Source: a bacterium (GTDB taxonomy: Bacteria; Auribacterota; Tritonobacteria; UBA1439). Taken from it: a stretch of DNA of 64,000 nt. Position 1 is the stretch's first letter. Every line of letters starts with the position of its first letter. The notes under the pieces are model-generated. The model ran no database searches and was not told where the DNA came from. It worked only from the letters and a program-made list of their open reading frames with translations. Made by a program: the position numbers and the translations under genes. Of the stretch, positions 31,490-62,930 are shown piece after piece. The DNA is taken from contig JAQUPF010000001.1 of assembly GCA_028716845.1 (NCBI GenBank), positions 216,167 to 280,166 on the forward strand, read 5' to 3'.

Positions 31490-31800
31490 CCCCGAACCGC
31501 GGATCTCCACGGATCATTGACGGATTGTCACGGATTGGATTGCAGTAGATACAGGGTTCCGGCCGCGGATTGACGCAGATACAACCGGCCACAGAGGACA
31601 CAGAGAACGCAGAGGATAGTGCCGCTTTCGGCTTTGAACGTTCAACTTTGAACTGTAGTTGTCCTCTGTGCTCTCTGTGGCTGACACATTGTTCCTTCCA
31701 CTCCACGCTCCCGCTTCCGACTCCGGACTGAAGTCGGATCCGCGATAATCCGCGTCGATCCGCGGCAAGAACATTATCCATTCGCGCTGATCTGCGCGGA
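31490..31800. repeat. Mosaic intergenic repeat element, copy a
   Basis: Contains module X (about 31563..31662, forward) and module Y (about 31496..31560, reverse) shared with other copies; lower GC than flanking genes. Confidence 0.7.
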
Positions 31801-31808
31801 AAGCAAAC

Positions 31809-31832
31809 GGGGCCTCTCTCTCGAGAGGCCCC
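31809..31832 (-). terminator. Hairpin terminator downstream of hsp20
   Basis: Perfect 10-bp stem GGGGCCTCTC / GAGAGGCCCC with 4-nt loop, followed on the minus strand by GTTTGCTTTCC. Confidence 0.55.
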
Positions 31833-31855
31833 GTGCCGGACCAGGACCGGGCGGG

Positions 31856-32308
31856 TTACTCCTTCACCTCGATCCTGATCTTCTTCTCCTTCGCCTCCTC
31901 CGCCTTCGGGAGCCGCACCTCGAGGACGCCGCCCTTGTACGAGGCCTTCACCTTGCCCTGGTCGACGGGGAAGGGGAGCTCGAGGCAGCGCTGGAACGAG
32001 CCGTAGTAGCGCTCGCAGCGGTAGAAGTCCTTCTCCTTCACCTCGGACTCCTGCTTCCTCTCCCCCCGGAGCGTGAGCGTGTTGCCCTGGATGGAGATGT
32101 CGACATCCTCCTCCTTCATCCCGGGGAGATCGGCCTTCACCACGATCGACTCCTTGTCCTCGTAGATGTCGAGGGCCGGACTCCACACGACGGCGCCCGG
32201 ATCGCCGAACAGTCGCCCGACCGAGGTGTCGAATACCCTGCTCAAGTCACCGGGGAGGTCGGCGAACGGACTCCACACATCGCGCGGTCTCCAACGTATC
32301 AGCGCCAT
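31856..32308 (-). CDS. Small heat-shock protein, Hsp20/alpha-crystallin family
   Basis: Track ORF 31856..32410; ATG 32308 with AAGGAGG RBS; alpha-crystallin domain (VKADLPGMKEEDVDISIQGNTLTLRGER...GVLEVRLPK). Confidence 0.85.
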   Translation of the reverse strand: MALIRWRPRDVWSPFADLPGDLSRVFDTSVGRLFGDPGAVVWSPALDIYEDKESIVVKADLPGMKEEDVDISIQGNTLTLRGERKQESEVKEKDFYRCERYYGSFQRCLELPFPVDQGKVKASYKGGVLEVRLPKAEEAKEKKIRIEVKE

Positions 32309-32350
32309 GATCCGCACCTCCTTTCTTCCATTTGTCCACATCATAATTAA

Positions 32351-32365
32351 GCATTTCCCGTGCCA
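32351..32365 (-). promoter_or_regulatory. Candidate sigma-54 (-24/-12) promoter for hsp20
   Basis: Minus-strand TGGCACGGGAAATGC (GG and GC separated by 10 nt, as in consensus TGGCACG-N4-TTGC); GC element about 45 nt upstream of the ATG. Confidence 0.45.
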
Positions 32366-32588
32366 GCGGGAGCGCGCGGGCGAAGGCACTCGGCGCAATC
32401 CGCAATACATTGCGGGAGAAGATAATACAAGTTAGACATCGCCATCCGGATTTCCTCACTTCTCCCCCATCCGGGCGCGTGAGCCATATTGACACGGGCC
32501 CGCATCAGACGCGCCGGGCCAGTTTGTCACGCGGGCGGCGCGGCACGGCATCCTTTCAAATGGGAGGAGATTGCGCGGCGGCGCTCCC

Positions 32589-33773
32589 ATGGGATACCAT
32601 ACCGCCATGCCCCCGAGGAATGTCACCCTCAGGCCGAAGGGCCTCCAGTGGTACATGACCGGCCACGCCTGGATCTACCGGGAGGACGTGGCGAACACGG
32701 GCGGCGCCCGCTCGGGCGACATCGTCTCCGTCTCGGACGCCCGCGGCCGCCGCCTCGGCTCGGCGTTCTACGGCGGCGCCTCGAAGATCGCCCTGCGCCT
32801 CCTGACGAGGGGCGAGGCGGTCGCGGACGACCGGCTCCTCGCGGACCGGCTCGCCGAGGCGATCGAGCGCCGGCGGCCGTCGATGGAGGAGGGCGGCGCC
32901 GCCCGGCTCGTCTACTCCGAGGGGGATTTCCTCCCGGGCCTCGTCGCGGACATCTACGACGGGTACGTCGTCCTGCAGGCGCTCATCCCCGCGGTGGACG
33001 CGCGGCTCGGCCTCTTCGCGAACGCGTGCGCCGACATCCTCCGGCCGCGCGGCATCGTCTGCAGGAACGACGCGAGCTCCCGCGCGCTGGAGGGCCTCCC
33101 GCTCGAGAAGAAGATGCTCGCGGGGGAGCAGCCGGGCCCGGTCGAGGTCGCGGAGGGCCCCGTGCGCTACCTCGCCGACCTCTGGAACGGCCACAAGACG
33201 GGGGCCTACCTCGATCAGCGCGACAACCGGCCGGCGGCGGCGCGGTACGCGCGGGGGCGCGTCCTCGACTGCTTCGCCTACCAGGGGCATTTCGCCCTCC
33301 ACTGCGCCCGGCGGGCGGAGACGGTCACGGCGGTCGAGTCGTCCGCGGAGGCGGTCGCGGTCATCGGGAGGAACTGCGCCCTCAACGAGCTCGCGAACGT
33401 GGAGGCCGTCGAGGGGAACGCCTTCGATCTCCTCCGCCGCGCGCACCGGGAGCGCCGGCGCTTCGACATGATCGTCCTCGACCCGCCGCCGCTCGCCCGG
33501 AAGCGGGCCCACGCGGCCGACGCGCTGCGCGGCTACAAGGAGATCAACCTGCGGGCGATGCACATCCTCGCCGAGGGGGGCGTCCTCGCCACCTTCTGCT
33601 GCTCGCACGGCATCCCGCGGGACCTCTTCCTGGAGGTCCTGCGCCGGGCGGCGGCGGACGCCCGCTGCGGATTCCGGGTCATGGAGGAGCTGCGGCAGGC
33701 CGCCGACCACCCGGTCCTCCTCCACGTCCCCGAGACGGCCTACCTCAAGGGCTTCGTCCTCCGGAAGACCTGA
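32589..33773 (+). CDS. Class I SAM-dependent rRNA methyltransferase, RlmI-like (PUA + MTase)
   Basis: Track ORF 32571..33773; LDCFAYQGHFALHCA and DPPPLARKRAH...EGGVLATFCCSH motifs. Confidence 0.7.
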   Translation: MGYHTAMPPRNVTLRPKGLQWYMTGHAWIYREDVANTGGARSGDIVSVSDARGRRLGSAFYGGASKIALRLLTRGEAVADDRLLADRLAEAIERRRPSMEEGGAARLVYSEGDFLPGLVADIYDGYVVLQALIPAVDARLGLFANACADILRPRGIVCRNDASSRALEGLPLEKKMLAGEQPGPVEVAEGPVRYLADLWNGHKTGAYLDQRDNRPAAARYARGRVLDCFAYQGHFALHCARRAETVTAVESSAEAVAVIGRNCALNELANVEAVEGNAFDLLRRAHRERRRFDMIVLDPPPLARKRAHAADALRGYKEINLRAMHILAEGGVLATFCCSHGIPRDLFLEVLRRAAADARCGFRVMEELRQAADHPVLLHVPETAYLKGFVLRKT

Positions 33774-33797
33774 GCGCCCCCGCCGGACCGCGCCCCC

Positions 33798-34316
33798 CTA
33801 CGGGGTGAGGAGCCGCCGGAGCTCCATCGAGAGGAAGAGGCGCGAGATCCCCCAGAAGAGGACGTACCAGGCGATGAGGAGCGGCAGGATGACCGGGTTC
33901 GAAAGGATGAGCACCGCCACGAGGATGTTGACGATGCCGAGGAACGCGAGGAAGAAGTTGCCTCCGAACACCCGGAACGAGCCGACGATCTCCCCCACGC
34001 CCGAGAGGACGAGGAAGAGGGCGACGATGAAGTAGACGAACCCGACGTTGAGGAGCCAGAGGAGGAGCGTGGCGAGGAGGCCGAGGAGGATCGAGAGAAT
34101 GCCCTGCCCGGCGCGGCCGGACCTGATGTAGTGCGCCCCCTCGCTGAACGAGTAGAAGACGATGAAGAGGGAGAGGATGAACTGGAACACCCGGAACGCG
34201 GAGGCCATCAGCAGCATCGTGCCCCCGGGATAGAACAGCATGAGGACGCCGAGGACGATGCCGAGCAGGGCGCCCGCCGTCATGGAGCCGAGCGCCGTCC
34301 TGACCGATCCGTTCAT
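33798..34316 (-). CDS. DUF308/HdeD-family small membrane protein
   Basis: Track ORF 172 aa, almost entirely hydrophobic helices with internal repeat pattern; family assignment tentative. Confidence 0.5.
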   Translation of the reverse strand: MNGSVRTALGSMTAGALLGIVLGVLMLFYPGGTMLLMASAFRVFQFILSLFIVFYSFSEGAHYIRSGRAGQGILSILLGLLATLLLWLLNVGFVYFIVALFLVLSGVGEIVGSFRVFGGNFFLAFLGIVNILVAVLILSNPVILPLLIAWYVLFWGISRLFLSMELRRLLTP

Positions 34317-34509
34317 CTCCCCTCCTTCCGCCCGTCGGGGCGTTTGGCCGGCATCCTACCATCCGCGGGGAGGCGGCGGCAAGGACGCATGAGGACGACG
34401 GGACCGGATCCCCGAACACTGGATTCGCGCGAACATTGACCGCGTGATGGTCAGGTGATAATATTTATTAAAATTTTATCCAGCGCCGCGTCTCGAAGGG
34501 AGGGGTCCC

Positions 34510-37101
34510 ATGCCGCGCCATCTTCGCTCCAGGACGCGTCTCCTTCTTTCCGCACTCGCCATCGCCTTTCTCATCCCGGCCGTCCCGCTCCGCGCCCAGC
34601 CCGCGGCGTCGGCGTGGCCGATGTTCCGCGGGAACCCCGCCCGGACGGGGCTGAGCGCCCACGAGGGGCCGAAGACGGGCAAGCGGCTCTGGCGCGTGAG
34701 CGCCGGGGACGCGATCGACACCTCCCCCGCCATCGGGACCGACGGCACGATCCACGTCGGCTCGTGGGACAGGCGCCTCTACGCCTTCCTTCCCGACCGG
34801 ACGCTCGCCTGGAGCTACGAAACCGGCGACCGGATACTCTCCTCGCCGGCGATCGACGCCGGCGACAGGGTCTATTACGGCTCCTCCGATATGCGCCTCT
34901 ACTGCCTCACGTCGGCGGGCTCGCTGGTGTGGAGCTACGAGGCGGCCGGCGACATCGTCAGCTCGCCGGCGATCGGGCCTGACTCCGAGATCTACTTCGG
35001 CTCCTGGGACAATGCCCTCTACGCCCTCGACTCGGGCGGATCCCTCGCGTGGAGCTACATGACGTCGGGGGGGATCGGCTATTCCTCTCCGGCGCTCGAC
35101 GGCGACGGCGGCGTCTACATAGGATCCTGGGACAGGATCCTGTACGCCCTCTCATCCGAAGGCGCGCTCCGGTGGAGTTACCATGCCGGGGGCTCGGGCA
35201 TCGACACCACCGCCGCCGTCGGTCCCGGGGGGAACATCTATTTCGGGAGTGTCGACACCGGCACGCTCTTCGCCGCCGATTCGACCGGCTCGTTCCTGTG
35301 GAGCTACGAGGCCGGCTGGGGGAGTATCTCCTCCCCCGCCATCGGCGCCGCCGGACGGGTCTACTTCGGCTCATCCGACCACAACGTCTACGCCCTCACG
35401 CACGACGGCGCGCTCGCCTGGAGCTACGAGCTCGCGTACGATCCGCAGTGGTCGGCGCCCGCCGTCGATGCCGAGGAGGGGATATACGCCGCCGGCGGCT
35501 GGCCGGCGAGGGTCTTCTCGTTCGACTCCGCGGGGACGTTCCTCTGGAGCTACAGCACGGGAGGCAACATCAATTCCTCCCCCGCGATCGGGGCTGACGG
35601 GACGCTCTTCATCGGCTCCGGCGACCGGCGGCTCCTCGCGCTCTACGATCCGACACCCACGCCGACGCCGACCGCCCCGACTCCCACGCCGACGGAGACG
35701 CCCACCGCCGGCCCGCCGGAGCCGGTCTTCGCCGTCGGGCGCACCTACGATCCGGCGCTCAGCGTATCCCATCCGGTCATCCTCCAGCGGCACGGCGCGC
35801 GGTGGCTGGACGTCGCCCCCGCCATGGAGGCGTCGCTCTGGCAGGTGGACGTAACCTCATGGAGCGACGCGTGGGCGGCGGGAGACGTCTGGGACCCGGT
35901 CGCCGAGGTGGCGAACATCGTCATCCTCCGGTGGGACGGATCGTCGTGGACGGACGTCTCGCCGCCGGGGATGGAGGGGTACTTCAGCGACATGCACATG
36001 CGCTCCGCCACGGAGGGGCTCGCCGTGGGGTCCTACTGGGACGAGGTCCAGGAGAAGTCCTTCGTCAAGACATGGAGCTGGGACGGGTCTTCATGGACCG
36101 ACGTCTCCCCGGTCATCGAGGGATGGCTCAACGGTGTCGGGATGGTGTCGGCCACTGAGGCGTACGCCGTCGGCAGTTGGTGGGATCCCGTGGATTCCAA
36201 ACAGTACATCAGGATACTCTCCTGGGACGGCTCCTCCTGGACCGCCATCGCCACGCCCGACGCCGAGGGGTATCTCGAGTCGCTGACCATGACCGGGCCG
36301 GGCGAGGGATACGCCGTCGGCAGCCGGTGGGATCCCGTGGCGGGGCAGTCACGCATCGTTATCTTCCGCTGCTCGGGAGGCGCATGGTCGGACGTGTCGC
36401 CCGGCGATGAAGGGTATCTGAATGACATCAGCATGTCCTCATCCGGGGAAGGGTACGCCGTCAGCAGTTTCTGGGACGATGACGAGGAGCTCTCCTACGC
36501 CCTCATCCACCGGTGGGACGGGACGGCCCTCACCGACGTGACGCCCCCGGGCATGCGGGGCTGGCTCGGCAGCGTGGACGTCAGGCCGGGCACGGGGCAT
36601 GCCGTCGGCTCGTGGTACGATCCCGAGACAGAGACGACGTGGTGCCGCATCGCCGATTTCGACGGCTCCTCGTGGACGGAGGCGTCCCCCGATTTCGCGG
36701 TCGATCTCAACGACGTCTCGATCGGGCCGCTGGGACCCTCGCCGACGCCGACGGAGACCCCGTCCCCGACGCCGACCGAGACGCCCTCGCCGACCCCGAC
36801 GCCGACGCCGGAGACGTACTGCTACGGGCCGCTCGGGATCTGCTACCTCCTCCCGCACGGGAATCCGCCGGTGCCGGAGAGCTACCCGGTGAACGACTGC
36901 GACGAGTGCGATACCTACACGCCGACGCCGACCGAGACGCCGGGGGAGACCCCCACGCCGACGCCCACGCCGACGGGCACGCCCGCGCCGGACGGCCCGT
37001 GGGTCAACTTCCAGCCCGATTCCGTCGACGTCCCCTTCGGCTACGTCCTGATGGACGAATCGGCGTACGGCGTCCGCGGCGAGCGGGGCTGGGTGTACTG
37101 A
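34510..37101 (+). CDS. Secreted multi-repeat protein: PQQ-like beta-propeller repeats, Thr/Pro linkers, second propeller-like W-D-G-S-S-W-T repeat domain, Cys-rich C-terminus
   Basis: Track ORF 863 aa; GGGAGGGG RBS; signal peptide; repeated Y-x-x-S-x-D-x-x-L-Y-A-L units; TPTPTPT linkers; at least 6 units of about 47 aa with WDGSSWTDVSP...GYAVGS. Confidence 0.75.
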   Translation: MPRHLRSRTRLLLSALAIAFLIPAVPLRAQPAASAWPMFRGNPARTGLSAHEGPKTGKRLWRVSAGDAIDTSPAIGTDGTIHVGSWDRRLYAFLPDRTLAWSYETGDRILSSPAIDAGDRVYYGSSDMRLYCLTSAGSLVWSYEAAGDIVSSPAIGPDSEIYFGSWDNALYALDSGGSLAWSYMTSGGIGYSSPALDGDGGVYIGSWDRILYALSSEGALRWSYHAGGSGIDTTAAVGPGGNIYFGSVDTGTLFAADSTGSFLWSYEAGWGSISSPAIGAAGRVYFGSSDHNVYALTHDGALAWSYELAYDPQWSAPAVDAEEGIYAAGGWPARVFSFDSAGTFLWSYSTGGNINSSPAIGADGTLFIGSGDRRLLALYDPTPTPTPTAPTPTPTETPTAGPPEPVFAVGRTYDPALSVSHPVILQRHGARWLDVAPAMEASLWQVDVTSWSDAWAAGDVWDPVAEVANIVILRWDGSSWTDVSPPGMEGYFSDMHMRSATEGLAVGSYWDEVQEKSFVKTWSWDGSSWTDVSPVIEGWLNGVGMVSATEAYAVGSWWDPVDSKQYIRILSWDGSSWTAIATPDAEGYLESLTMTGPGEGYAVGSRWDPVAGQSRIVIFRCSGGAWSDVSPGDEGYLNDISMSSSGEGYAVSSFWDDDEELSYALIHRWDGTALTDVTPPGMRGWLGSVDVRPGTGHAVGSWYDPETETTWCRIADFDGSSWTEASPDFAVDLNDVSIGPLGPSPTPTETPSPTPTETPSPTPTPTPETYCYGPLGICYLLPHGNPPVPESYPVNDCDECDTYTPTPTETPGETPTPTPTPTGTPAPDGPWVNFQPDSVDVPFGYVLMDESAYGVRGERGWVY

Positions 37102-37116
37102 GCGGGGGCCGGCCGG

Positions 37117-37572
37117 TCAGCCCCTCGCCCGCGCCGCGCGCGCCATCTCCCGCGCCGCCTCGCGCCGCCGGACGGCCTCGCGCTTGTCGTAGGCCTTCTT
37201 GCCGCGGGCGAGGGCGATCTCGACCTTCGCCACCCCCCCCTTGAAGTAGATCCGAAGGGGGACGCAGGTGAGCCCCTTCCGGGAGACCTGCCCCTCGATG
37301 TGGGCGATCTCGCGGCGGTGGAGGAGGAGCTTGCGCTTCCGGAGCGGGTCGGGGTTCGCCCGGTTGCCGAACTCGTACGGACTCACGTGGGCGTTGCAGA
37401 GGAACGCCTCGCCCCCCTCGACGACGCAGAAGGCGTCGCCGATGTTCGCCCGCCCCCGCCGGAGCGACTTCACCTCGGTCCCCGTGAGGGCGATCCCCGC
37501 CTCGAGCGTCTCGAGGAAGTGGTACTCGTGGCGGGCCTTCCGGTTGGTCGCGACGCTCCGGGGCCGTTCCAT
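37117..37572 (-). CDS. smpB: SsrA-binding protein SmpB
   Basis: Track ORF; ATNRKARHEYHFLETLEAGIALTGTEVKSLR is the canonical SmpB N-terminus. Confidence 0.85.
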   Translation of the reverse strand: MERPRSVATNRKARHEYHFLETLEAGIALTGTEVKSLRRGRANIGDAFCVVEGGEAFLCNAHVSPYEFGNRANPDPLRKRKLLLHRREIAHIEGQVSRKGLTCVPLRIYFKGGVAKVEIALARGKKAYDKREAVRRREAAREMARAARARG

Positions 37573-37587
37573 GGGGCGCGGGGGCGG

Positions 37588-38328
37588 CTAGTCGAGGCCG
37601 CCGATCGTCCCGGGGAAGGAGTCGTGCTCGATCTCGGCCTCCCGCCCCGCCGGGCTCAGCTCGATGTGCGGCTCGGGCGGGGTCAGGTCCTCGATGGGCG
37701 CGTCCTCGGGGACCGGCTCCAGGATGGCGGTGACGGTGAGGTCGTTGTCGGCGAGGACGCCGACGACCTTCGTGTACGGAGCGAAGCCGGGCTTCCGGAC
37801 CTTCAGGATGTAGTTCCCCTCGGGGAGCTTCAGGAGCGAGGTCCTGCCGTTCCCGATGAGGTTGTCGTTCAGGTAGATCTCGGCGTCGGGCTCCTCGGGG
37901 ACGGCCGCGATCAGGATGTTGCCGTGCTTCCGCTCGACGGCCCGCTCCTTCTGGTCGAGGTAGAGGGTGATCTGCCCCCGGTAGCCCTTGACCTGGTCGG
38001 TGACCCCCACCTGCTCGATGTTGAGCTTCCGGTAGCAGTTGGCGACCGTGATGACCTCGACCTCGTCGTCGTACCCCTGCTTCCGGGCCACGATCTCGGA
38101 GAGGCCCCTCGCCACGAAGTGGGCCGAGGAGTCGCCGTCGTTGACGGCGGTGAACTTGTACGGCGTCCGCCCGACGTAGTGCCCGTTGAGGAAGAGGCGC
38201 GCGCCGTGCGGCATGGAGTAGATCCTCACCTCGCAGACCGTCTTCGCCGTTCCGCCGGTGTATCTCCCCGTGCATCCCGCGACCGCGACCGCGGCCAGCA
38301 GCCCCGCCGCCCACACGTTCCGGCTCAT
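37588..38328 (-). CDS. PEGA-domain lipoprotein
   Basis: Track ORF 37588..38475; ATG 38328 with GGAGGGAAC RBS; lipobox AVAGC; LKLPEGNYILKVRKPGFAPY PEGA motif. Confidence 0.65.
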   Translation of the reverse strand: MSRNVWAAGLLAAVAVAGCTGRYTGGTAKTVCEVRIYSMPHGARLFLNGHYVGRTPYKFTAVNDGDSSAHFVARGLSEIVARKQGYDDEVEVITVANCYRKLNIEQVGVTDQVKGYRGQITLYLDQKERAVERKHGNILIAAVPEEPDAEIYLNDNLIGNGRTSLLKLPEGNYILKVRKPGFAPYTKVVGVLADNDLTVTAILEPVPEDAPIEDLTPPEPHIELSPAGREAEIEHDSFPGTIGGLD

Positions 38329-38484
38329 TCCGTTCCCTCCGCGCGACCGGGCCGACGGGGAGGATTCCCCGCCCCCGCAATATGGTACGCCCGGCGGCCG
38401 CTTTTGTTCGGTCCGGCACGGAGTGTAGCACAGGGCGGATGGCGGGGGAACCGTTTTGCCGCGACGGGGGCACAATGAACGACG

Positions 38485-38652
38485 CTACAGTTGAAAGTGG
38501 AAAGTTGAAAGTTCAAATCCGCGGCAGGAACGCCGTTTCTTCGGCTGGAGTCAAATCCGCGGCAAGAGCTCTGATACTTTCAACTTTGAACTTTTAACTT
38601 TGAACAGTTGGATCCGTGGCAATCCGTGGTGGATTCGTTCTTGATACTTACG
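38485..38652. repeat. Mosaic intergenic repeat element, copy b
   Basis: GTGGAAAGTTGAAAGTTCAAA / TTTCAACTTTGAAC internal inverted repeats and terminal CCACGGATTGCCACGGATCC module shared with other copies. Confidence 0.6.
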
Positions 38653-38665
38653 GCTGCGGTTGCGG

Positions 38666-38932
38666 TCAGTGGGCGCGGCGGCCGGGAGGCATGTACAGGT
38701 AGCAGTGCTTGTGGCGGGCGAGGATCGGCTTGAGCTGGTCGGTATCGGGCGGGCTCAGGACCGTGGCGTCGAAATTCCCCCCCACCGACGCGAAGACCAT
38801 CTCCTTGAGACGGTCGACGGCCTCCTCCGCGAACCGGCCCTTCGCCGAGAGGGAGAGCTCCGGGCAGTGCGCCTCGAAGATCCCGTCCTCCCGCTCGTCC
38901 ACCTCAACCGTCAGATGCAGCCGCCGACCCAT
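38666..38932 (-). CDS. Hypothetical small protein at the 3' end of the por operon
   Basis: Track ORF 88 aa; no strong RBS; no recognisable motif. Confidence 0.3.
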   Translation of the reverse strand: MGRRLHLTVEVDEREDGIFEAHCPELSLSAKGRFAEEAVDRLKEMVFASVGGNFDATVLSPPDTDQLKPILARHKHCYLYMPPGRRAH

Positions 38933-38965
38933 GTCGCTCGCGGGGCGCGGGCGTTCGCGACGCCC

Positions 38966-39898
38966 TCACCCGCCCTCCTCTCCGCAGAGGTGCAGGAGCT
39001 CGCTCCATCGCCGGTCCACGCCCGCCTGGATCTCCTCGACGACCTTCGCGTTCTCCGGCTTCGTCAGGTGCGCGAAGCGCTTCTGCGTCCCGAACCACTC
39101 GGTGATCGGGGCCTTCCGCTTCGGCTTGTAGTTGAGGCGCCAGGCCCCGTCCTCGACCTCGAAGAGCGGCCAGTGGCACGTCTCGACGGCCGTCTTGCAG
39201 ACGTCGAGCGAGGTGTGCATCGGGACGCGCCATCCGCGGTGGCAGGAGGAGATGACGTTGATGAACTTCGGCCCCCGGATCCGGAGCGCCTTCCGCACCT
39301 TCTCCATGAGGTCCATCCAGCGGTGCGGCGAGGCCTGGGCCGCGTAGGGGATGCCGTGGGCGACCATGATCTTCGTCAGGTCCTTCGCGTACTGCCGCTT
39401 GCCGATCGACTCCTTCCCCACGGGCGAGGTGGAGGTGGCGGCGCACATCGGCGTGGAGCCCGACCGCTGGATCCCCGTGTTCATGTACGCCTCGTTGTTG
39501 TAGCAGACGTAGAGAAAGTCGTGGCCGCGCTCCATCGCCCCGGAGAGCGCCTGGAGGCCGATGTCGTACGTGCCGCCGTCCCCGCCGAAGGCGATGAACC
39601 TGATCTCCCGGTCGATCCTCCCCTGCTTCCGGAGGGCGCGGTAGGCGGTCTCGATCCCGCTCATCGTCGCGGCGGAGTTCTCGAAGGCATTGTGCATGAA
39701 GGGGACGCGCCAGGCCGTGTACGGGTAGATGGTCGTGACGACCTCCATGCAGCCCGTGGCGCAGGTGCACACCACCGGCTCCTCGGCGGCCATCAGGACG
39801 AGCTTGATGGCGATGATGCTGCCGCAGCCGGCGCAGGCCCGGTGGCCCGGGCTCAGCGGCACCGGCTTCTTCGAGAGCTCCTTCAGATTGATCGCCAT
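38966..39898 (-). CDS. porB: Pyruvate/2-oxoacid:ferredoxin oxidoreductase, beta subunit (TPP-binding)
   Basis: Part of track ORF 38966..40051; ATG 39898 (MAINLKELSK); CAGCGS and GGDGG TPP-binding motifs. Confidence 0.85.
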   Translation of the reverse strand: MAINLKELSKKPVPLSPGHRACAGCGSIIAIKLVLMAAEEPVVCTCATGCMEVVTTIYPYTAWRVPFMHNAFENSAATMSGIETAYRALRKQGRIDREIRFIAFGGDGGTYDIGLQALSGAMERGHDFLYVCYNNEAYMNTGIQRSGSTPMCAATSTSPVGKESIGKRQYAKDLTKIMVAHGIPYAAQASPHRWMDLMEKVRKALRIRGPKFINVISSCHRGWRVPMHTSLDVCKTAVETCHWPLFEVEDGAWRLNYKPKRKAPITEWFGTQKRFAHLTKPENAKVVEEIQAGVDRRWSELLHLCGEEGG

Positions 39899-39920
39899 GT
39901 CCGTCGCCTCGTCCCGGCGG

Positions 39921-41090: not shown

Positions 41091-41461
41091 GCGGTCCGGC
41101 CTCCCCCCCCCGCGCCCTTCTTCGGGGCCCGCTTCTTCCCCGACCGCCAGCATCCGCCCTCGTCCGCCCCGCCGGGCGCCTCGCTCTCGAGGATCATCCG
41201 GATGGCGTGCACGGGGCATATCCGCTCGCAGATGCCGCACCCCTTGCAGTGCGCGTAATCGTACCCGGTCATCCTCCCGTCCTCGACGTTGATGCACATG
41301 TCCGGGCAGAGGAGCCAGCACTGGAGGCAGTCGATGCAGACGTCCTTGTCGACCTGGGGCCGGTACGTCCGCCAGCCCCCCGTGACGTACCGCTCCGCGT
41401 TCCCCGCCTCGAGGATGAGTCCCCCGATGGGGATCTCCCGCCAGCCGCGCTCTTCAGCCAT
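41087..41461 (-). CDS. porD: Pyruvate:ferredoxin oxidoreductase, delta subunit (2x[4Fe-4S] ferredoxin)
   Basis: Track ORF; two Cys clusters CIDCLQCWLLCP and CKGCGICERICP. Confidence 0.8.
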   Translation of the reverse strand: MAEERGWREIPIGGLILEAGNAERYVTGGWRTYRPQVDKDVCIDCLQCWLLCPDMCINVEDGRMTGYDYAHCKGCGICERICPVHAIRMILESEAPGGADEGGCWRSGKKRAPKKGAGGGGRTA

Positions 41462-42020: not shown

Positions 42021-42099
42021 CGCCGCCCCGCCCCGGCACGCGCGCACAATGCACAGGGCCTTGCATTATACCACAGCCGCCGCGGGACCCCAAAGCCGA

Positions 42100-42490
42100 A
42101 TCATCCGAATCAGCCCGGCAACAAGAACAAATCCACCACGGATTGGCGCGGATCCAACTACAGTTCAAAGTTAAAAGTTCAAAGCCGAAAGCAGCACTAT
42201 CCTCTGCGTTCTCTGTGTCCTCTGTGGCCGGTTGTATCTGCGTTAATCGGCGGCCGGAACCCTGTATCTACTGCAATCCAATCCGTGACAATCCGTCAAT
42301 GATCCGTGGAGATCCGCGGCTCGTGGTTCATCGTTCCGCTGCGTCTCGCGCGATGGACGAAGGACGAACGACGAACTGCGTGTACAGAATCCGCGCGAAT
42401 TTGCGGCAAACAAGGTCCTCCGTGTTCTCTGTGTGCTCTGCGGCGAACCAGAACCGTGAAGATCCGCGGTTGATTGTGGCTTGATATATG
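42100..42490. repeat. Mosaic intergenic repeat element, copy c
   Basis: Module X reverse (about 42155..42250), module Y forward (about 42279..42378), terminal module ending about 15 nt from the recR stop. Confidence 0.7.
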
Positions 42491-42502
42491 CGGCGGGGGC
42501 GG

Positions 42503-43099: not shown

Positions 43100-43124
43100 G
43101 ACGCGATGACCGGCCGCGCGGCCG

Positions 43125-43430
43125 TCAGGAGGGTCCCGGGAGGCCGCCGGCGAGCGCCCGCATCTTCTCCGCCGCGAGGCGCTGCGCCTTCTCGCGGGCG
43201 TCGTTCGAGGCCTCGAGCACCATCCGCTCGATCGCGTGCGCGTCGCCGCGGGCGAGGAGCTCGGGGGCGATCGAAACGGCGGTGATCCTCATCCGGCCGT
43301 CCATGCCTATCCTGACGGCCCCGCCGCCGGCGATCCCCTCGGCGGAGATCGCCGCGAGGCCGGCGTCGATCCTCCCCATCTCCTTCCGCAGGCTGTGCGC
43401 CTGCTTGAGCATCTCGAACGGATTCCGCAC
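43125..43430 (-). CDS. ybaB: Nucleoid-associated protein YbaB/EbfC
   Basis: Track ORF 101 aa; conserved dnaX-ybaB-recR gene order. Confidence 0.85.
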   Translation of the reverse strand: MRNPFEMLKQAHSLRKEMGRIDAGLAAISAEGIAGGGAVRIGMDGRMRITAVSIAPELLARGDAHAIERMVLEASNDAREKAQRLAAEKMRALAGGLPGPS

Positions 43431-43445
43431 CTCGTTCCCTCCCCG

Positions 43446-47080: not shown

Positions 47081-47400
47081 CCCGCGACCGACCGCCCTTC
47101 CCTGAAGACACGACGCGCCAAGCCACCGCCGCCTATATCAAGCACCAATCAACCACGGATTGGCACGGATCCAAACGACAGTGGAAAGTTGAAGGCATAA
47201 CGCCGAACGTAAAGTCGTTTCCGCCGCGGATGAACGTGAACAGCAGCTCGCTCTTTTCGCCACGGAGATCACAGAGAACAACTCCAGTGCGAAGTTGAAC
47301 GTTCAAAGTCGAAAGCAGCACTATCCTCTGCGTTCTCTGTGTCCTCTGTGGCCGGTTGTATCTGCGTCAATCCGCGGCAAGGCAGTTCATTTCATCGACG
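47081..47400. repeat. Mosaic intergenic repeat element, copy d (begins with 90-bp direct repeat DR1)
   Basis: DR1 47081..47170 is about 91% identical to 47918..48007; module X reverse at about 47291..47380. Confidence 0.7.
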
Positions 47401-47487
47401 GCAATGGTGGATTGGTGCGTGTCGAGTTCGTGCTTTGTGGCGGCGGGCGGAATCGGCTATAGTGTCGTCCGGTCGGGGGAGAGCGCC

Positions 47488-47928
47488 ATGCCGGATCTCG
47501 TCACGCACCTCTGCGCCGCCCAGGTCATCCGGCGCCTCCTCCGGCTCCGCCTCTTCCCCCTCTTCGCCCTCGGCGCCGTCCTCCCGGACCTCCTCTCGCG
47601 GCCGGCGCACATCCTCTTCCCCGGCACCGCCCCGTTCGTCGTCGCGTTCCACTCGCCCGTCGTGCTCCTCCTCTGCTGCCTCCTCGCGAGCCTCCTGTTC
47701 GCGCGGCCGATACGGCGCGCCTGCCTCGGGTACCTCGCGGCCGGCTCGGCGCTCCACCTCGCCCTCGACGTCATGCAGAAGCAGATCTGCCCGGTCTACT
47801 ACTACTGGCTCTTCCCCTTCTCGCGCTGGACGTGGGACGCCGACCTGTTCTGGCCGGAGCAGGCCCTCCTCCTCCTCCCGGTCACCATCGCCGTCACCGC
47901 GCTCGTGACGGTCCTCACCCGCGACTGA
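47488..47928 (+). CDS. Inner-membrane protein, YdjM/DUF457-like putative metal-dependent hydrolase
   Basis: Part of track ORF 47356..47928; ATG 47488 with GGGGGAGAG RBS; MPDLVTHL start and four hydrophobic helices; family assignment tentative. Confidence 0.55.
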   Translation: MPDLVTHLCAAQVIRRLLRLRLFPLFALGAVLPDLLSRPAHILFPGTAPFVVAFHSPVVLLLCCLLASLLFARPIRRACLGYLAAGSALHLALDVMQKQICPVYYYWLFPFSRWTWDADLFWPEQALLLLPVTIAVTALVTVLTRD

Positions 47929-48175
47929 CCGCCCTTCCCTGAAGACGCGACGCACCAATCCACCGCCGCATATATCAAGCACCAATCGACCACGGATCGG
48001 CACGGATTACGACGGATGAGCACGGATCCATACCACAGCCGGGAGCGGCGGTGTTCTTGCCGCGGATTGACGCAGATACAACCGGCCACAGAGGACACAG
48101 AGAACGCAGAGGATAGTGCTGCTTTCGACTTTGAACGTTTAACTGTAGTTGGGATCCGTGATCATCCGCGGCGGC
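47918..48175. repeat. Mosaic intergenic repeat element, copy e (begins with DR2 overlapping the stop codon of the preceding gene)
   Basis: DR2 47918..48007; module X forward at about 48059..48150. Confidence 0.7.
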
Positions 48176-48218
48176 TTTGTCCTTCCGGGTCCGTTCCCTT
48201 CGCGCGCGGCGGGCGGGG

Positions 48219-49493: not shown

Positions 49494-49519
49494 GGGGAGG
49501 GGCCATCTTACCCCATCCG

Positions 49520-49810
49520 TCCGCGGCCACAAAGCGCAAACTCGACAACGCACACTCGACACGCACCGATCCGCCACGGACCGGCGCGGATCCAAACGAC
49601 AGCGGAAATTTGAACGCATAAAGCCGAACGTGAGGCCGTTTCCCACGTTGAACTTTTCGCTTTGAACGTTCAACTGTGGTTGGGATCCGTGACAATCCGT
49701 CAATGATCCGCGGAGATCCGCGGCTCGTGGTTCATCGTTCCGCTGCGGCTCGCGCGATGGACGAAGGACGAACGACGAACTTCGTTGACAGAATCCGTGG
49801 CAGGGAGTTC
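49520..49810. repeat. Mosaic intergenic repeat element, copy f
   Basis: Module Y forward (about 49689..49788, about 100 bp with 2 mismatches to copy c) plus AACGTTCAA-type inverted repeats. Confidence 0.7.
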
Positions 49811-49821
49811 ATTGTCATCCC

Positions 49822-58514: not shown

Positions 58515-58529
58515 TGGCACATAATATGC
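58515..58529 (+). promoter_or_regulatory. Candidate sigma-54 (-24/-12) promoter inside the AT-rich divergent region
   Basis: TGGCACATAATATGC, same GG-N10-GC spacing as consensus; about 55 nt upstream of ATG 58584. Confidence 0.5.
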
Positions 58530-58583
58530 TTATATAAACGAACAGGCACACAAAATGTGCATGCAGAGGAAAGGAGATTGAAA

Positions 58584-58883
58584 ATGATGGCAACAAGATT
58601 CCTCAGGACACTCGCGGCCGTCGTCGCGGCCGCCGCGGTGCTGGCTTCGACGGTCGACGCCGCCGGGAAGGTGAACATCAACACCGCCTCCCGGTGGAGG
58701 CTCGAGAAGCTGCCGGGGGTCGGTCCGGACATCGCGCAGCTGATCATCGCCTACAGGAGGGATTCAGGCGGGTTCAGGAGTGTCTCCGAGCTCGGCCAGA
58801 TACCCGGCATCGGCGGAAAGAAGCTTGAGGGTCTCAAGCGCGTCGCCACCGTCGGCCGGCTCGCGGAGCGCGACCGTCTCTGA
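58584..58883 (+). CDS. ComEA-like secreted helix-hairpin-helix DNA-binding protein
   Basis: Part of track ORF 58557..58883; ATG 58584 with AGGAGA RBS; signal peptide; INTASRWRLEKLPGVGPDIAQLIIAYRRDSGGFRSVSELGQIPGIGGKKLEGL. Confidence 0.7.
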   Translation: MMATRFLRTLAAVVAAAAVLASTVDAAGKVNINTASRWRLEKLPGVGPDIAQLIIAYRRDSGGFRSVSELGQIPGIGGKKLEGLKRVATVGRLAERDRL

Positions 58884-59115: not shown

Positions 59116-62106
59116 GTGAACGTGCGCGCGTGGCATCCCAGCTTGAAGACGATCGTCGCCGCGGCCGCCTCCCTCGCCGCGCTGCAGCCCCTGCCGGGCG
59201 CCGCCGGTCCCGACGAGGGGCCGGACGCCGGTTCCGAGCTCGCGCTCCATTCCCGGGTCATCCGGCCGGGTCCGGCCGACCTCGAGGGGCTCCGCGCCGC
59301 CGCCGCGCGCGCGCACGGGAGATCGCGGATCCACGCCCTCATCCGACTCGACGGGATCCCTTCGCCGGCACGCCGGGCGGCGCTCAGCCGGGAAGGGCTC
59401 TTCCTCCTCTCCTACGTGCCCGACCGCGCCTGGCTCGCCTCGCTCCCCTCGGACGACATCGGCCGTATCGTCGCCCTGCCCGGCGTTCGATGGGCGGGGC
59501 CGCTCGATCCGGCCGACAAGATCAGCCCGATCCTCCGGCGGGGCGGGTTCGGCGGATGGGCGCACGACGGGTCGTCGGGCCGCTGCGTCGTCCTCGTCAC
59601 GCTGTTCCGGGACGTCGGCCTCGAGGAGGGGGAGGAGGCCGTCCGCTCGCTCGGGGGGAGGGTCACGGGGGAGGCGGGTCTCGTCCACACGCTCGTTGCG
59701 GAGATCCCCGTCGCGGCGGTCGAGGCCCTCGCCGCCCATGACATCGTCGAGTGGATCGAGCAGCCGCTCCCGCCGCTCGAGCCGGTCAACGCCGGGAACA
59801 GGGCGGTCGTCGGCGCGGACACGCTCCAGGCCGCGCCGTACAACCTCGCGGGGAGCGGCGTGAACGTCCTCGTCTACGACGCCGGACGGGTGTACGGCCA
59901 CAGCGACCTGGTCGCTCGGATGACGGAGGGCGACTCCTCGCCGTTCCATGAGCACGCCACGCACGTCGCCTGCACGGTCTGCGGCGACGGCACGGTGACG
60001 TTTAACAACCGCGGGATGGCGCCGGCCGCCAATCTCCTCTCGATGGGGTTCGAGTACGACGGGAGCGGCGTCTTCCTCTACACGAACCCGGGCGACATCG
60101 AGGACGATTTCACCTACGCGAAGAACGCCTGGCCCCCCTCCGCCGACCTCCTCAACGCCTCCATCGGGACGAACACGGCCTGGAACGGTTTCCCGTGCTC
60201 CTACGAGGGGAACTACGGCGTCACCGACATCCTCCTCGACTCGATCGTGCGCGGATCGCTCGGGGAGCCGTTCATCATGGCGTGGGCCGCGGGGAACGAG
60301 CGGGGAGACGGCAGGTGCGGCTCATCGTACCGCACAACCGCGCCGCCGGCGTGCGCGAAGAACCCGATCCAGTCCGGGGCGACGAACGAATCCGACGGGA
60401 TGTCCTCCTTCTCGTCATGGGGGCCGACGGACGACGGGCGGATCAAGCCGGTCGTCTGCGCGCCGGGCGTGAACGTCCTCTCGTGCAATCAATCCAACGG
60501 CTACAGGACAATGAGCGGGACATCGATGGCCTCGCCGACGACCGCCGGCGTCATCGCCCTCATGCTCGAGCAGTACCGGATCACGTACGGGACCGCCGTC
60601 GCCTTCCTCCCCTCGTCGGCGAAGGCGCTCCTCATCCACACGGCGGCGGACCTCGGCCCGGCGGGGCCCGATTTCCGCTTCGGCTACGGCCGGATCGACG
60701 CCGTGGCGGCGGCGGACCGGATCATCGCGCGCGACCTCCGCGAGGAGCCGGCCACCGTCCACGACGAGACCCGTGACTACGCGGTGACGGTCGCGCCCGG
60801 GACGCCCGAACTCAGGGCGAGCCTCGCCTGGGACGACCCGCCGGGGACGCTCATGGCGGTGCGGAAGCTCGTCAACGACCTCGACCTCGAGCTGGTTGCC
60901 CCGGGCGGCGCCGTCCACCGCCCCTGGGTCCTCGATCCCGCGAATCCGTCGGACACCGCGACGACGGGCGCGGACAATCTCAACAACCAGGAGCAGGTCG
61001 TCGTGAGCGGCCCCGCCGCCGGCGTCTGGACGGTCCGCGTCCGCGCCTCAGCCCTCCCGGAGCCGCCGCAGGCGTACTCGATCGTCTTCCCCGGGGCGGC
61101 CGACATCGCTCCCGCCGTGACGCCCGGGGCCACGCCCACGCCGACGCCGACGCCGAAGGTGTGCTACGAGGCCGTGACGAACGGCGGCTTCGAGTCGGGC
61201 TCGGATCCCTGGGTCCTGACCGGCTCGGCGGTCCGGAGCGCCCAGCAGGCGCGGTCGGGCTCGTACTCGATGCGGCTCGGGGGCCCGGGCAACGGCAGGA
61301 TGCATCTCGAGGTCGGCGTCCCGCCGTCGGCCGCAGGCGCCACGCTCTCCTACTGGGTCCGGATGCAGACGGCGGAGACCGACCCCGATCCGGACGACTT
61401 CCTGGATGTGGAGATCCACGACGGCGCCGGGAGGACGCTCACGACGCTCCAGTCGCTCTCCGACCGCGATCCGTCCTACAAGGACGCGTGGCGGCAGGAG
61501 TCGTTCACCCTCGGGTCGGACCTCGCGGGAAGAACGATCCGGCTGCATTTCCAGGCGCTGGTGAACAACACCATGGCCACCTATTTCTTCATCGATGACG
61601 TGGGCCTCGAGATCTGCGGATCCGAGCTGCCGCCGACGCCCGCGCCGACGCCGACGCCCGCGCCCAACTACATCAACCTGTCGCTCTCCCCGGTACAGCT
61701 CCGGCCGGGCGGGGCGGTGGAACTCTCCTGGCGCTGCGACTTCAGCCGCTGGGACTACGCGGGCCGGCCGGTGGACGTGTACCTCGCGGCGATCAGGGAC
61801 CCGAAGGCGGCGGGGGCCTCGTCGAGCATCGGGGACGCGCTCGCGGGCGGCGAGGTCCGGCTCTTCGAGGACGGGATGCGGACGTCGTACCGTTTCACCG
61901 GCGCGGTGCGGGCGCCGTGCTGGCGGGGCGTGGTATTCCCGCCGACACCGCTCGCGGGGACGCTCCGGTTCACGGTGCCGCCCGACCCGTCGTTCCACGG
62001 CGACTGGGTGTTCGCGACGGCGTTCTTCCTGAAGGATCCGCCGGGGCCGGTCCGCGACGACGGCCTCCCCGTGGAGAACTCCGACATCGCGACGGTCGCC
62101 CCGTAG
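59116..62106 (+). CDS. Secreted subtilisin-like serine protease (peptidase S8) with propeptide and large C-terminal extension
   Basis: Part of track ORF 58780..62106; start uncertain (candidates between 59044 and 59143); catalytic triad contexts VLVYDAG, HATHVACT, SGTSMASP; Thr/Pro linkers; C-terminal beta-rich domains. Confidence 0.8.
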   Translation: MNVRAWHPSLKTIVAAAASLAALQPLPGAAGPDEGPDAGSELALHSRVIRPGPADLEGLRAAAARAHGRSRIHALIRLDGIPSPARRAALSREGLFLLSYVPDRAWLASLPSDDIGRIVALPGVRWAGPLDPADKISPILRRGGFGGWAHDGSSGRCVVLVTLFRDVGLEEGEEAVRSLGGRVTGEAGLVHTLVAEIPVAAVEALAAHDIVEWIEQPLPPLEPVNAGNRAVVGADTLQAAPYNLAGSGVNVLVYDAGRVYGHSDLVARMTEGDSSPFHEHATHVACTVCGDGTVTFNNRGMAPAANLLSMGFEYDGSGVFLYTNPGDIEDDFTYAKNAWPPSADLLNASIGTNTAWNGFPCSYEGNYGVTDILLDSIVRGSLGEPFIMAWAAGNERGDGRCGSSYRTTAPPACAKNPIQSGATNESDGMSSFSSWGPTDDGRIKPVVCAPGVNVLSCNQSNGYRTMSGTSMASPTTAGVIALMLEQYRITYGTAVAFLPSSAKALLIHTAADLGPAGPDFRFGYGRIDAVAAADRIIARDLREEPATVHDETRDYAVTVAPGTPELRASLAWDDPPGTLMAVRKLVNDLDLELVAPGGAVHRPWVLDPANPSDTATTGADNLNNQEQVVVSGPAAGVWTVRVRASALPEPPQAYSIVFPGAADIAPAVTPGATPTPTPTPKVCYEAVTNGGFESGSDPWVLTGSAVRSAQQARSGSYSMRLGGPGNGRMHLEVGVPPSAAGATLSYWVRMQTAETDPDPDDFLDVEIHDGAGRTLTTLQSLSDRDPSYKDAWRQESFTLGSDLAGRTIRLHFQALVNNTMATYFFIDDVGLEICGSELPPTPAPTPTPAPNYINLSLSPVQLRPGGAVELSWRCDFSRWDYAGRPVDVYLAAIRDPKAAGASSSIGDALAGGEVRLFEDGMRTSYRFTGAVRAPCWRGVVFPPTPLAGTLRFTVPPDPSFHGDWVFATAFFLKDPPGPVRDDGLPVENSDIATVAP

Positions 62107-62164
62107 CCGGCCGCGTCTTCCGCGCCGTCAGCGGCGGGCCGCGTCCCGGGCGATGGCGGCGGCG

Positions 62165-62497
62165 CTACTCCTCCTCCTTGTACTCCTCCCACATCTGCTC
62201 GTAGTCGATCTCCTCGATGGCGGCCTGGCCCCTGGAGACGTCGGGGATCCTGGCCCTGAGATCGGCGATGGGCGGCTCGATCGCCTCGGAGGGGATCACC
62301 TCGAACGATTGGCCGTCGTCCGTCTTGTAGTTGATCTTCCGCTCGAGGCAGAAGTTCATGATCTTCTTCAGGACCCGCCGGTCGCACCGCTCGCGGACGA
62401 ACCGCCTCCGCTTCCGGCTCCACTTCATCTTCAGGTTCTTGAGGATCTCGTCCTTGTACCGCTCGGCGGCGTCACCCCACAGTTGAATGCTCGTCAT
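62165..62497 (-). CDS. Hypothetical small Lys/Arg/Glu-rich protein
   Basis: Part of track ORF 62165..62605; ATG 62497 (MTSIQLWGDAAERYKDEILKNLK...); no recognisable domain. Confidence 0.4.
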   Translation of the reverse strand: MTSIQLWGDAAERYKDEILKNLKMKWSRKRRRFVRERCDRRVLKKIMNFCLERKINYKTDDGQSFEVIPSEAIEPPIADLRARIPDVSRGQAAIEEIDYEQMWEEYKEEE

Positions 62498-62599
62498 GGC
62501 CGTCCTCCCGCGCGCGCCGCGCTGCTTCCGAAAGGCGCGGCACAATAGCCCAACGGCGAAAATGGTGTCAAGCGGAAAGTACGGCGCCGGCCCGGGAGG

Positions 62600-62930
62600 G
62601 AACAATAATGCACTCCACCCTGCGGATCGGCGCGGATCCCGACAACAGTTGAACGTTCAAGGCGAAACGTTCAAAGCGGGAAACGGCGGAAACCCTGTTC
62701 CTTTCGGCCGCCTTCTCATCCGCGTGGATCCGCGTGCATCCAAGGTTGAAAGTGGAAAGCAGGCAAATGCCTTGCCGCCACAGAGATCACAGAGACCACA
62801 GAGGAATCGGAGAGTCCATCTTGTTCAATCCGCGATAATCCGCGTGGATCCGCGGCGAACACCATCCTCCGTGTTCTCTGAGTGCTCTGTGGCGGACTGC
62901 AACCGTGCCGATCCGTGGTGGATTGATGCT
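62600..62930. repeat. Mosaic intergenic repeat element, copy g
   Basis: Shares ATCCGCGATAATCCGCGT-GGATCCGCGGC, AACGTTCAA and CACAGAG-type modules and the terminal CCACGGATCGGCACGG module with other copies. Confidence 0.65.

Follow-up and report, generated by a model that had tools for sequence, protein, structure and literature searches.

Mosaic intergenic repeats written in tandem heptamer arrays in an Auribacterota genome, and the wide occurrence of two of their array types

Small intergenic repeats affect operon expression, genome rearrangement and assembly quality in bacteria, and are understood in few model organisms. A 64,000-nt stretch of a metagenome-assembled genome (MAG) of the Auribacterota (GenBank assembly GCA_028716845.1, contig JAQUPF010000001.1, positions 216,167 to 280,166; hereafter the window, in whose numbering all unattributed coordinates are given) raises the question of what kind of element its repeats represent: seven copies of 180–440 bp, all of them intergenic, in which a handful of modules recur in shuffled order. 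A preliminary description, made from the sequence alone, recognised these copies and suggested that they resemble miniature inverted-repeat transposable elements (MITEs), repetitive extragenic palindromes (REPs) or bacterial interspersed mosaic elements (BIMEs), or else encode structured RNAs in 3′ untranslated regions (UTRs). The description itself proved accurate and the interpretation partly right; what it had not seen is that the modules are arrays of 7–11-nt units, and that two of the array types are common far beyond this lineage. The family is best read as non-autonomous and extragenic, and we judge the chances to be about even that it is a BIME-like or REPIN-like family (REPINs being hairpin-forming REP doublets) of selfish, non-coding mosaic repeats acting at the level of DNA, the array words of which would be recognition sites for protein.

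The seven mosaic intergenic copies are real. Self-BLAST and repeat finding, by which copy boundaries were refined, recovered them at or near the positions first given (Table 1), and neither these methods nor an array scan detected copies or element-type arrays in window positions 1–30000. Modules shared between copies are 91–99% identical over 90–214 nt in both orientations; the best self-BLAST pairs align over 214 nt at 91% (E 1e-68), 113 nt at 96%, 120 nt at 93% and 89 nt at 99%, and a 90-nt direct repeat (repeat family D19) connects copy 4 (47081–47170) with copy 5 (47918–48007) at 92% identity. As first described, the elements are of lower GC content than their surroundings (0.475–0.580 against 0.696 for the window) and contain a module X with four exact core matches, two in each orientation; a degenerate version of its core triplet matched the window eight times, against 0.00 matches expected from 100 shuffles. 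The three occurrences claimed for a second module, Y, must be amended to two full copies, 96% identical, and a third that is only partial and inverted. In overall module order, no two copies are alike.

Underlying this mosaic are four kinds of micro-array, in each of which 7-nt cores are repeated in tandem at a fixed period: A arrays (core CRCGGAY, two to four units, period 10–11 nt), B arrays (CACAGAG-type core, two or three units, period 9 nt), C arrays (GTTNAAN, two to four units, period 7 nt) and D arrays (GACGAAS, three units, period 7 nt). A pattern scan placed all 34 of the window's element-type arrays inside the seven elements, the only other matches being four GGCGGAC-type stretches outside them. 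An A array of two units, with ..AATC(N)AC as its flank, forms the terminal module, and copies 1, 3 and 7 have imperfect inverted ends based on arrays. The dimensions are not those of CRISPR arrays, where repeats of 23–50 nt alternate with unique spacers of comparable length: here the units are of 7 nt, the spacers of 0–4 nt, and each array holds two to four units.

With coding frames called from the GC content of third codon positions (GC3) and gene names taken from Pfam, the elements are seen to lie among housekeeping genes: greA, hsp20, smpB, a PEGA-domain gene, pyruvate:ferredoxin oxidoreductase (POR) subunits, recR, ybaB, dnaX, a HEAT-repeat gene, a ydjM-like gene, hemL, a DUF362 gene and a sigma-54 activator. 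Neighbouring genes are co-directional at copies 1, 2, 3 and 7, divergent at copies 4 and 6, and convergent at copy 5, which overlaps the final 11 nt of the ydjM-like coding sequence. The reported anchoring of the terminal module at stop codons was upheld for recR, the ydjM-like gene and an 88-aa open reading frame (ORF), at all three of which TGA is followed directly by the lead-in CCGC...CCGC(C/A)GC..TATCAAG. So, too, was the reported replacement of a stop codon at 62716: the ORF at 62716–63999 on the minus strand has no native stop, and its GC3 drops from ~1.0 to ~0.55 at ~62945, where copy 7 begins, so that ~72 codons read from the element have been appended to it. The annotated protein of this ORF probably bears an element-encoded tail; its junction sequence resembles that of recR minus the TGA, and looks like a footprint of insertion or replacement rather than a designed signal. 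A scan for tRNA and tmRNA genes found none.

Comparison with related genomes, proposed in the preliminary description, showed that the family turns over. The HemL protein encoded in the window is 100% identical to MDD5555861.1, with Candidatus Auribacterota as the nearest named relative at 69% identity, and syntenic loci were fetched via HemL homologues of ~70% identity (L numbers denote fetched loci or contigs compared with the window). In L122 (69% GC) the spacer between the DUF362 gene and hemL is 90 nt long, hemL overlaps ydjM and no element is present; L125 (63% GC) has a small element after hemL, with GTTTCTC ×3 and ATCCGCG ×2; and L128 and L129 (59% GC) carry full mosaic elements at the same intergenic sites as the window, composed of CACGAAG ×3 and CACGGAG ×3–4 hairpins, GTTTCTC ×3 and AATCCGCG arrays. 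As relatives differ both in the presence of elements and in their heptamers, the family is old in the lineage and variably present, and its heptamers turn over in identity. L128, which carries many arrays, also encodes a Y1_Tnp (IS200-like, RAYT-like) protein at 20377–21284 (L129, 19803–20615), with no arrays in its readable flank and no DnaA-like C-terminal domain detected by Pfam. Two further observations were made at these loci: L122, the relative without heptamer arrays, has an intergenic tandem 28-nt unit in ~5 copies at 19905–20054 (...CGCCGCCCCACCGCAA...), and the 99.9%-identical strain contigs L128 (3927–3984) and L129 (3410–3536) show a 183-nt difference within a hypothetical gene (663 aa vs 602 aa), which looks like a coding tandem-repeat length polymorphism.

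Beyond the lineage, the arrays were sought in one genome per species with CACAGAGNNCACAGAGNNCNCAGAG, the 20 specified bases of which lead to an expectation of ~1 chance match. CACAGAG triplet arrays were found at at least 120 genome loci, with the same heptamer throughout at genomic GC contents of 37–74%, and arrays of CACAGAG and CACGGAT triplets are present in at least 15 phyla. Among the 80 matches listed are Acidobacteriota, Planctomycetota, Chloroflexota, Bacteroidota, Desulfobacterota, Geobacter relatives, Beta- and Gammaproteobacteria, Gemmatimonadota, cyanobacteria, Bacillota, Verrucomicrobiota, Spirochaetota, Cloacimonadota, Ignavibacteriota, WOR-3 and Binatia; the array query matched none of 5,426 E. 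coli genomes. In IMG/VR, the CACAGAG array is present in at least 120 viral stretches and the CACGGAT triplet pattern in 85, with single phage contigs, encoding terminases and portals, bearing up to seven arrays and some bearing both types; among GenBank phages, the array is confined to a few uncultured gut contigs. In PLSDB the array is present in 32 plasmid or chromid records, including those of Gemmatirosa kalamazoonensis (24 and 16 places), Pseudoalteromonas shioyasakiensis, Bacteroides finegoldii, B. ovatus, Nostoc, Anabaena and Calothrix, and apart from one hypothetical protein no annotated feature coincides with the PLSDB matches. In these phyla and phages the arrays lie between genes, and they are unannotated in every record examined. 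The exact core of module X had no match in the metagenome scan.

Three units were counted in 147 of 160 bacterial and 177 of 183 viral arrays; as the scan pattern itself demanded three units, what this result tells is that longer arrays are rare. The six bases ahead of the first CAC read T-T-T-A-R-C, with C at position −1 in 86% and T at position −2 in 0–1%, and at about half of the cross-phylum loci an inverted partner array lies 13–300 nt away. Concatenation of mixed flavours is seen in L306 ([CACGGAT]3-[CACGAAG]3), L170 and L026 ([CACGGAT]3[CACAGAG]3...[CTCTGTG]3[ATCCGTG]3), and the mosaic habit is therefore general. Other flavours were encountered in passing (TGGTCAG in L013, CTGCATAAT ×7 in L009), and in the viral contig L172 long CCAGTAT/CCAGCAT heptamer runs adjoin CACAGAG arrays at ~1480–1640 and ~10820–10920. 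Resemblances to known sites were considered and set aside: TTAACCACA resembles the DnaA box TTATCCACA, which is ruled out by the presence of T in only 0–1% at the position where the box requires it; only some flanks are similar to a parS half-site (TTTCAC/GTGAAA), others reading TTAGC/GCTAA; CACGGAU is like the GGA-containing CsrA consensus, yet the arrays have no fixed orientation and GGA is often missing from the CACAGAG type; and likenesses to BoxA, Chi and Csp-binding sites were dropped as weak and post hoc.

A repeat family within one MAG would by itself be a routine member of the REP, BIME and MITE assortment. What goes beyond the routine is the fixed-size heptamer-array construction, together with the occurrence of two arrays and their conserved flank, unannotated and unexplained, across many phyla and phages: a lineage-specific family is written in a vocabulary that is common to many phyla and uncultured phages and independent of genomic GC. 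The same heptamer at any GC content, its absence from E. coli and its wide spread imply a specific recognition partner. It is conceivable, and we put it forward tentatively, that TTTARC-(CACAGAG NN)3, TTTAAC-(CACGGAT N3-4)3 and their CACGGAG and CACGAAG siblings are cis-sites of an unrecognised, horizontally mobile, sequence-specific nucleic-acid-binding system. Such a system would amount either to a new, very small mobile element with multi-site ends or to a new intercistronic control signal, and the mosaic elements of the window would then be concatenations of several of its sites. There are several cultured organisms among the carriers (Geobacter bemidjiensis, Bacteroides fragilis, B. finegoldii, B. 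ovatus, Gemmatirosa kalamazoonensis, Pseudoalteromonas shioyasakiensis, Nostoc and Anabaena), which makes the question of a partner directly testable. On the practical side, short-read assemblies break at the arrays, and annotated ORFs can be lengthened or cut short by them.

Amongst known repeats, the closest in architecture are the BIMEs of E. coli and its relatives, which are likewise extragenic, non-coding, multicopy mosaics of palindromic units (PUs) in alternating orientation with conserved linkers, located mostly after genes and within operons; the likeness suggested at the outset is a fair one for the anatomy, including the inverted ends. Here, however, tandem arrays of 7-nt cores take the place of single 35-nt palindromes, and the window sequences differ from the PU consensus (Y, Z1, Z2); without homology to PU motifs, the correspondence to BIMEs is one of architecture only. 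REPs and REPINs, mobilised by REP-associated tyrosine transposases (RAYTs, of the Y1 class), share with these elements the inverted doublets that form hairpins, within-genome evolution, non-coding nature and a bias towards tandem and convergent gene contexts. The name REP in its strict sense, a short, imperfect GTAG-tagged palindrome of 20–40 nt accompanied by a RAYT gene that is itself typically flanked by REPs, does not apply in the window: no GTAG/CGTC-tagged palindrome recurs, neither tblastn nor Pfam found a RAYT gene in the 64 kb, the spacers of the two arms are barely complementary, and in other genomes many arrays stand alone. BOX elements of Streptococcus pneumoniae have a fixed boxA-boxB(n)-boxC order, and Correia elements, which are MITEs of Neisseria, have 26-bp terminal inverted repeats (TIRs) and TA duplications. 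Both are small, modular or TIR-bounded intergenic repeats that can be co-transcribed and alter the expression of neighbours, but neither the fixed box order nor the 26-bp TIRs and TA duplications are seen in the window elements.

The short tandem heptamer repeats of cyanobacteria (STRRs) and the TAACTGA repeats are also short, tandem and intergenic, often just upstream of start codons, in unrelated lineages and with no known mechanism; those arrays are contiguous, with 2–43 units and other cores, whereas here the cores are separated by spacers, number ~3, follow a conserved 5′ flank and are frequently paired in inversion. TAACTGA direct repeats are common to Beggiatoaceae, Cyanobacteria and Bacteroidetes and make a comparable unexplained case (MacGregor 2015, PMC4679880). 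The only prior description of the arrays found in the literature is in the supplement to the Geobacter bemidjiensis genome, where nonanucleotide repeats TTT[WCCTCTGTGR0-1Y0-1]nGTGAG are given at dozens of intergenic sites (PMC2996986, Table S6) and their implications "remain to be elucidated" (Aklujkar et al. 2010, PMC2996986). With a core CTCTGTG that is CACAGAG read on the other strand, a 9-nt period and an intergenic, multicopy, often paired arrangement, they are of the same class as the B arrays of the window, all nine of which consist of tandem CCTCTGTG-containing 9-nt units and end in ...CTCTGTGG, as the Geobacter repeats end in GTGAG or GTGG. Unlike the arrays described here, they were listed for one genus in a supplement only, and were not recognised as cross-phylum, phage-borne or parts of larger mosaics. 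Literature searches with sequence strings yielded nothing but eukaryotic primers and a single primer for Bacteroides fragilis, which contains CTCTGTGTTCTCTGTGGTG.

On the BIME/REPIN-like reading, an element is a string of array words, each of two to four tandem 7-nt cores at periods of 7, 9 or 10–11 nt; as the words are often nested inverted repeats, a complete element is a long imperfect palindrome. The words may act as recognition sites for one or more trans-acting, DNA-acting proteins, for example as the end-binding sites of a recombinase or transposase, and within the genome elements would multiply and be rearranged through transposition-like copying combined with recombination or template switching at arrays. 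What this does to neighbouring genes would probably be incidental: additional 5′ or 3′ UTR, hairpins in transcripts and one lost stop codon. The gene contexts of arrays in other genomes (76 tandem, 27 convergent and 11 divergent) have a REP-like distribution. Also in favour of this reading are the high identity of the copies in both orientations, the confinement of element-type arrays to the elements, the inverted array ends of complete copies and their folding as nested hairpins (copies 1 and 7), the differences between relatives at orthologous sites, the displaced stop codon, the wide spread, three-unit size and conserved flank of two array types, the weak complementarity of spacers, the lack of a sense-strand G.U bias and the occurrence of single arrays in both orientations.

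Several results weigh against this reading. Homology blocks tend to end at arrays, which is compatible with recombination or template switching there, yet arrays cover about one third of each element, so that the coincidence is no more than suggestive. No direct duplication of a target site was found at the aligned copy ends, where the conserved flanks are part of the palindrome; as first noted, no transposase is encoded, and neither transposase nor integrase domains were detected by Pfam in 40 ORFs, including 30 that lie in the repeat-bearing half; and a homologue of the L128 Y1_Tnp gene is absent from both the window (tblastn) and the 120 cross-phylum loci. All-against-all clustering of ORFs found no gene family that recurs beside arrays at 120 bacterial or 203 viral loci, the clusters being limited to common families in bacteria and, in phages, to standard structural genes. 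Near-identical strain contigs (100% or 99.9% identical across loci) showed no insertion polymorphism, many arrays in other genomes are solitary and unpaired, and on phage contigs arrays fit tightly into the space from stop codon to ribosome-binding site in co-directional genes, a placement that could equally well reflect a function in gene expression.

That placement belongs to the case for RNA-level cis-elements, in which co-transcribed hairpins or single-stranded arrays would serve as stabilisers, processing sites, terminators or modulators of translation, in the manner of REP hairpins or T7 RNase III sites. The purine-rich arm starts 2–30 nt 3′ of a stop codon, the TAA/TAG of the flank often being that stop, and the pyrimidine-rich arm ends 10–40 nt 5′ of the next start codon; divergent promoter regions are poor in arrays; copies 1 and 7 fold as RNA with −147.9 kcal/mol (z −4.9 vs shuffles) and −163.2 kcal/mol (z −5.3); and in Bacteroides finegoldii a perfect 32-bp hairpin stands 7 nt 3′ of the nadC stop codon, which together with the position of arrays beside stops and ribosome-binding sites keeps a role in RNA within consideration. 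We nevertheless think it rather unlikely. The structured 3′ UTR RNA first suggested gained no support from covariance models, with no Rfam match at the gathering threshold in the whole window or 16 related loci, two chance-level matches, neither of them in an element, from a permissive E-value search of 31300–50000, and no corresponding family in Rfam 15. Copy 3 folds no better than its shuffles (z −0.9), and promoter and terminator scans gave no enrichment. Across 33 hairpins flanked by co-directional genes, mismatches favour neither strand: 28 would be G.U on the sense strand, against 33 that would be A.C there and G.U on the antisense strand only. The spacer dinucleotides of the two arms can pair in only 23 of 99 cases, where shuffling gives 13 ± 3.2; with spacers barely complementary, the cores are conserved for their own sake and not for pairing. 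Solitary arrays are found in both orientations relative to transcription (41:26 and 25:15 on phage contigs, 5:13 in bacteria). Given that genes at cross-phylum loci are crude ORF calls and that matches from related contigs are non-independent, nothing within these limits points to a strand-specific RNA.

Of similarly low probability, in our view, is a host function for the arrays as DNA-binding sites, whether for a nucleoid-associated protein, a global regulator or a centromere-like system, as with the heptad arrays of ribbon-helix-helix proteins. The three-unit size, conserved cores, free spacers and conserved flank would all suit such sites, the 10–11-bp period of CRCGGAY puts its units on one face of the helix, inverted pairs fit symmetric oligomers, and paired tandem octamer/heptamer arrays in G. 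metallireducens, some at fixed distances from insertion sequences (ISs), were read as "predicted global regulator binding sites" (Aklujkar et al. 2009, PMC2700814). The distribution of the arrays studied here, however, is patchy, extending neither to a 69%-GC relative at the same sites nor to E. coli; they are found within operons and where convergent genes end, positions at which regulation is unexpected; one copy destroys a stop codon; and the 7- and 9-nt periods are not helically phased. Ordinary MITEs, moved as units by the transposase of the IS from which they derive by deletion, share the array-based inverted ends, the size, the presence of both orientations and the lack of coding capacity, and were amongst the first suggestions, but appear improbable: target-site duplications cannot be defined, modules are reshuffled into a different order in every copy rather than copied as a unit, no parent IS with such ends was seen in the window, the relatives or more than 320 loci, and the exact terminal module has a single, unrelated match in the metagenome collection of the Joint Genome Institute (JGI). 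Chance, low complexity or faulty assembly is excluded as the source of the repeats. The source is metagenome-assembled and short-read assemblies do break at these repeats, but against this stand the self-BLAST and triplet statistics and the presence of analogous elements at syntenic sites in independent metagenomes; moreover, a contig from a separate Logan assembly (L121) is 100% identical over 29330–31526 and stops inside copy 1, which argues against an artefact of a single assembly and is the expected effect of a genuine dispersed repeat on short-read assembly.

Table 1. Elements, modules and micro-arrays in the window; a prime denotes inverted orientation within a copy
Feature	Positions	Strand	Composition or setting
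Copy 1	31451..31810		A4-B3-C-B'2-A'3, nested palindrome; between hsp20 terminator and greA promoter region
Module Y, partial	31451..31535		inverted
A array ×4	31498..31535	+	CRCGGAY, period 10–11
Module X	31556..31647		
B array ×3	31590..31614	+	exact module X core, period 9
C array ×3	31633..31653	−	period 7
B array ×2	31664..31679	−	partner arm
A array ×3	31738..31764	−	
Copy 2	38485..38663		C4 ... C'4-A'2; between 88-aa ORF stop and PEGA gene start; GC 0.475
C array ×4	38490..38517	+	
C array ×4	38578..38605	−	
A array ×2	38612..38628	−	terminal module; adjoins TGA of ORF 38666–38932 (88-aa ORF)
Copy 3	42064..42500		A2-C3-B'3(X)-A'4(Y)-D3-B'3-A'1, non-palindromic mosaic; between recR stop and POR gamma start
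A array ×2	42137..42153	+	terminal module
C array ×3	42163..42183	+	
Module X	42169..42260		inverted
B array ×3	42202..42226	−	exact module X core
Module Y	42281..42393		full copy
A array ×4	42281..42318	−	
D array ×3	42356..42376	+	period 7
B array ×3	42418..42442	−	
Copy 4	47081..47451		A2-C2-B2-C-B'3(X)-A'1; divergent region, HEAT-repeat gene / ydjM-like gene
A array ×2	47154..47170	+	terminal module
C array ×2	47181..47194	+	
B array ×2	47261..47276	+	partner arm
C array ×2	47294..47307	+	AACGTTCAA palindrome
B array ×3	47326..47350	−	exact module X core
Copy 5	47918..48186		A4-A1-B3(X)-C'-A'2; between convergent ydjM-like and hemL genes
A array ×4	47991..48027	+	period 10
B array ×3	48087..48111	+	exact module X core
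C array ×2	48130..48143	−	
A array ×2	48154..48170	−	
Copy 6	49504..49800		A2 ... C'-A'4(Y)-D3-A'1; divergent region, hemL / DUF362 gene
A array ×2	49575..49591	+	terminal module
C array ×2	49661..49674	−	
Module Y	49685..49797		full copy
A array ×4	49685..49722	−	
D array ×3	49760..49780	+	
Copy 7	62598..62945		A2-C-A'2-C-B3-A'3-B'3-A'1, nested palindrome; abuts upstream ORF without native stop
A array ×2	62621..62637	+	terminal
C array ×2	62648..62661	+	
A array ×2	62718..62734	−	
C array ×2	62745..62758	+	
B array ×3	62779..62803	+	
A array ×3	62828..62854	−	
B array ×3	62867..62891	−	partner arm

Other features of the intergenic regions were observed alongside the elements. The motif GCACAATG (CATTGTGC on the minus strand) is found at 31480–31487, 38470–38477 and 42044–42051, with a variant at 62540, close to the 5′ ends of minus-strand genes, four in all (greA, the PEGA gene, POR gamma and the gene starting near 62548), and at varying distance from −10-like boxes; it may be a regulatory site. 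A block of ~45 nt (CGAGTTYGYGCTTTGTGGCSGCGG...) at 47405–47451 and 49516–49576, 85–87% identical, lies a short distance upstream of the −10-like boxes for the ydjM-like gene and for hemL, which are neighbours in all relatives, and may be either a common promoter or operator or an outer repeat module. Between 58260 and 58585 is a strongly AT-rich divergent intergenic region, of ~30–35% GC in a 70% GC genome and without arrays, in which a sigma-54-like TGGCAC-N5-ATGCT at 58515–58530 precedes a gene for a ComEA-like helix-hairpin-helix protein (58584–58883) and which adjoins the sigma-54 activator gene.

Repetition of other kinds is present within coding sequence. Three to four tandem paralogous genes at 19180–23300, spaced by 1063–1263 nt (repeat families D5, D7, D8 and D10–D12), adjoin glycosyltransferase genes in a long minus-strand polysaccharide cluster, and further paralogue pairs lie at 8043–8342/14380–14679 and 12810–13094/17790–18074. 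Within the gene at 34510–37101, which encodes a beta-propeller protein (PQQ/BamB-like), positions 36716–37004 specify a Pro/Thr-rich linker made of CGCCGA-type repeats of 6–24 nt, and a similar stretch is found in a subtilase gene at 61115–61670.

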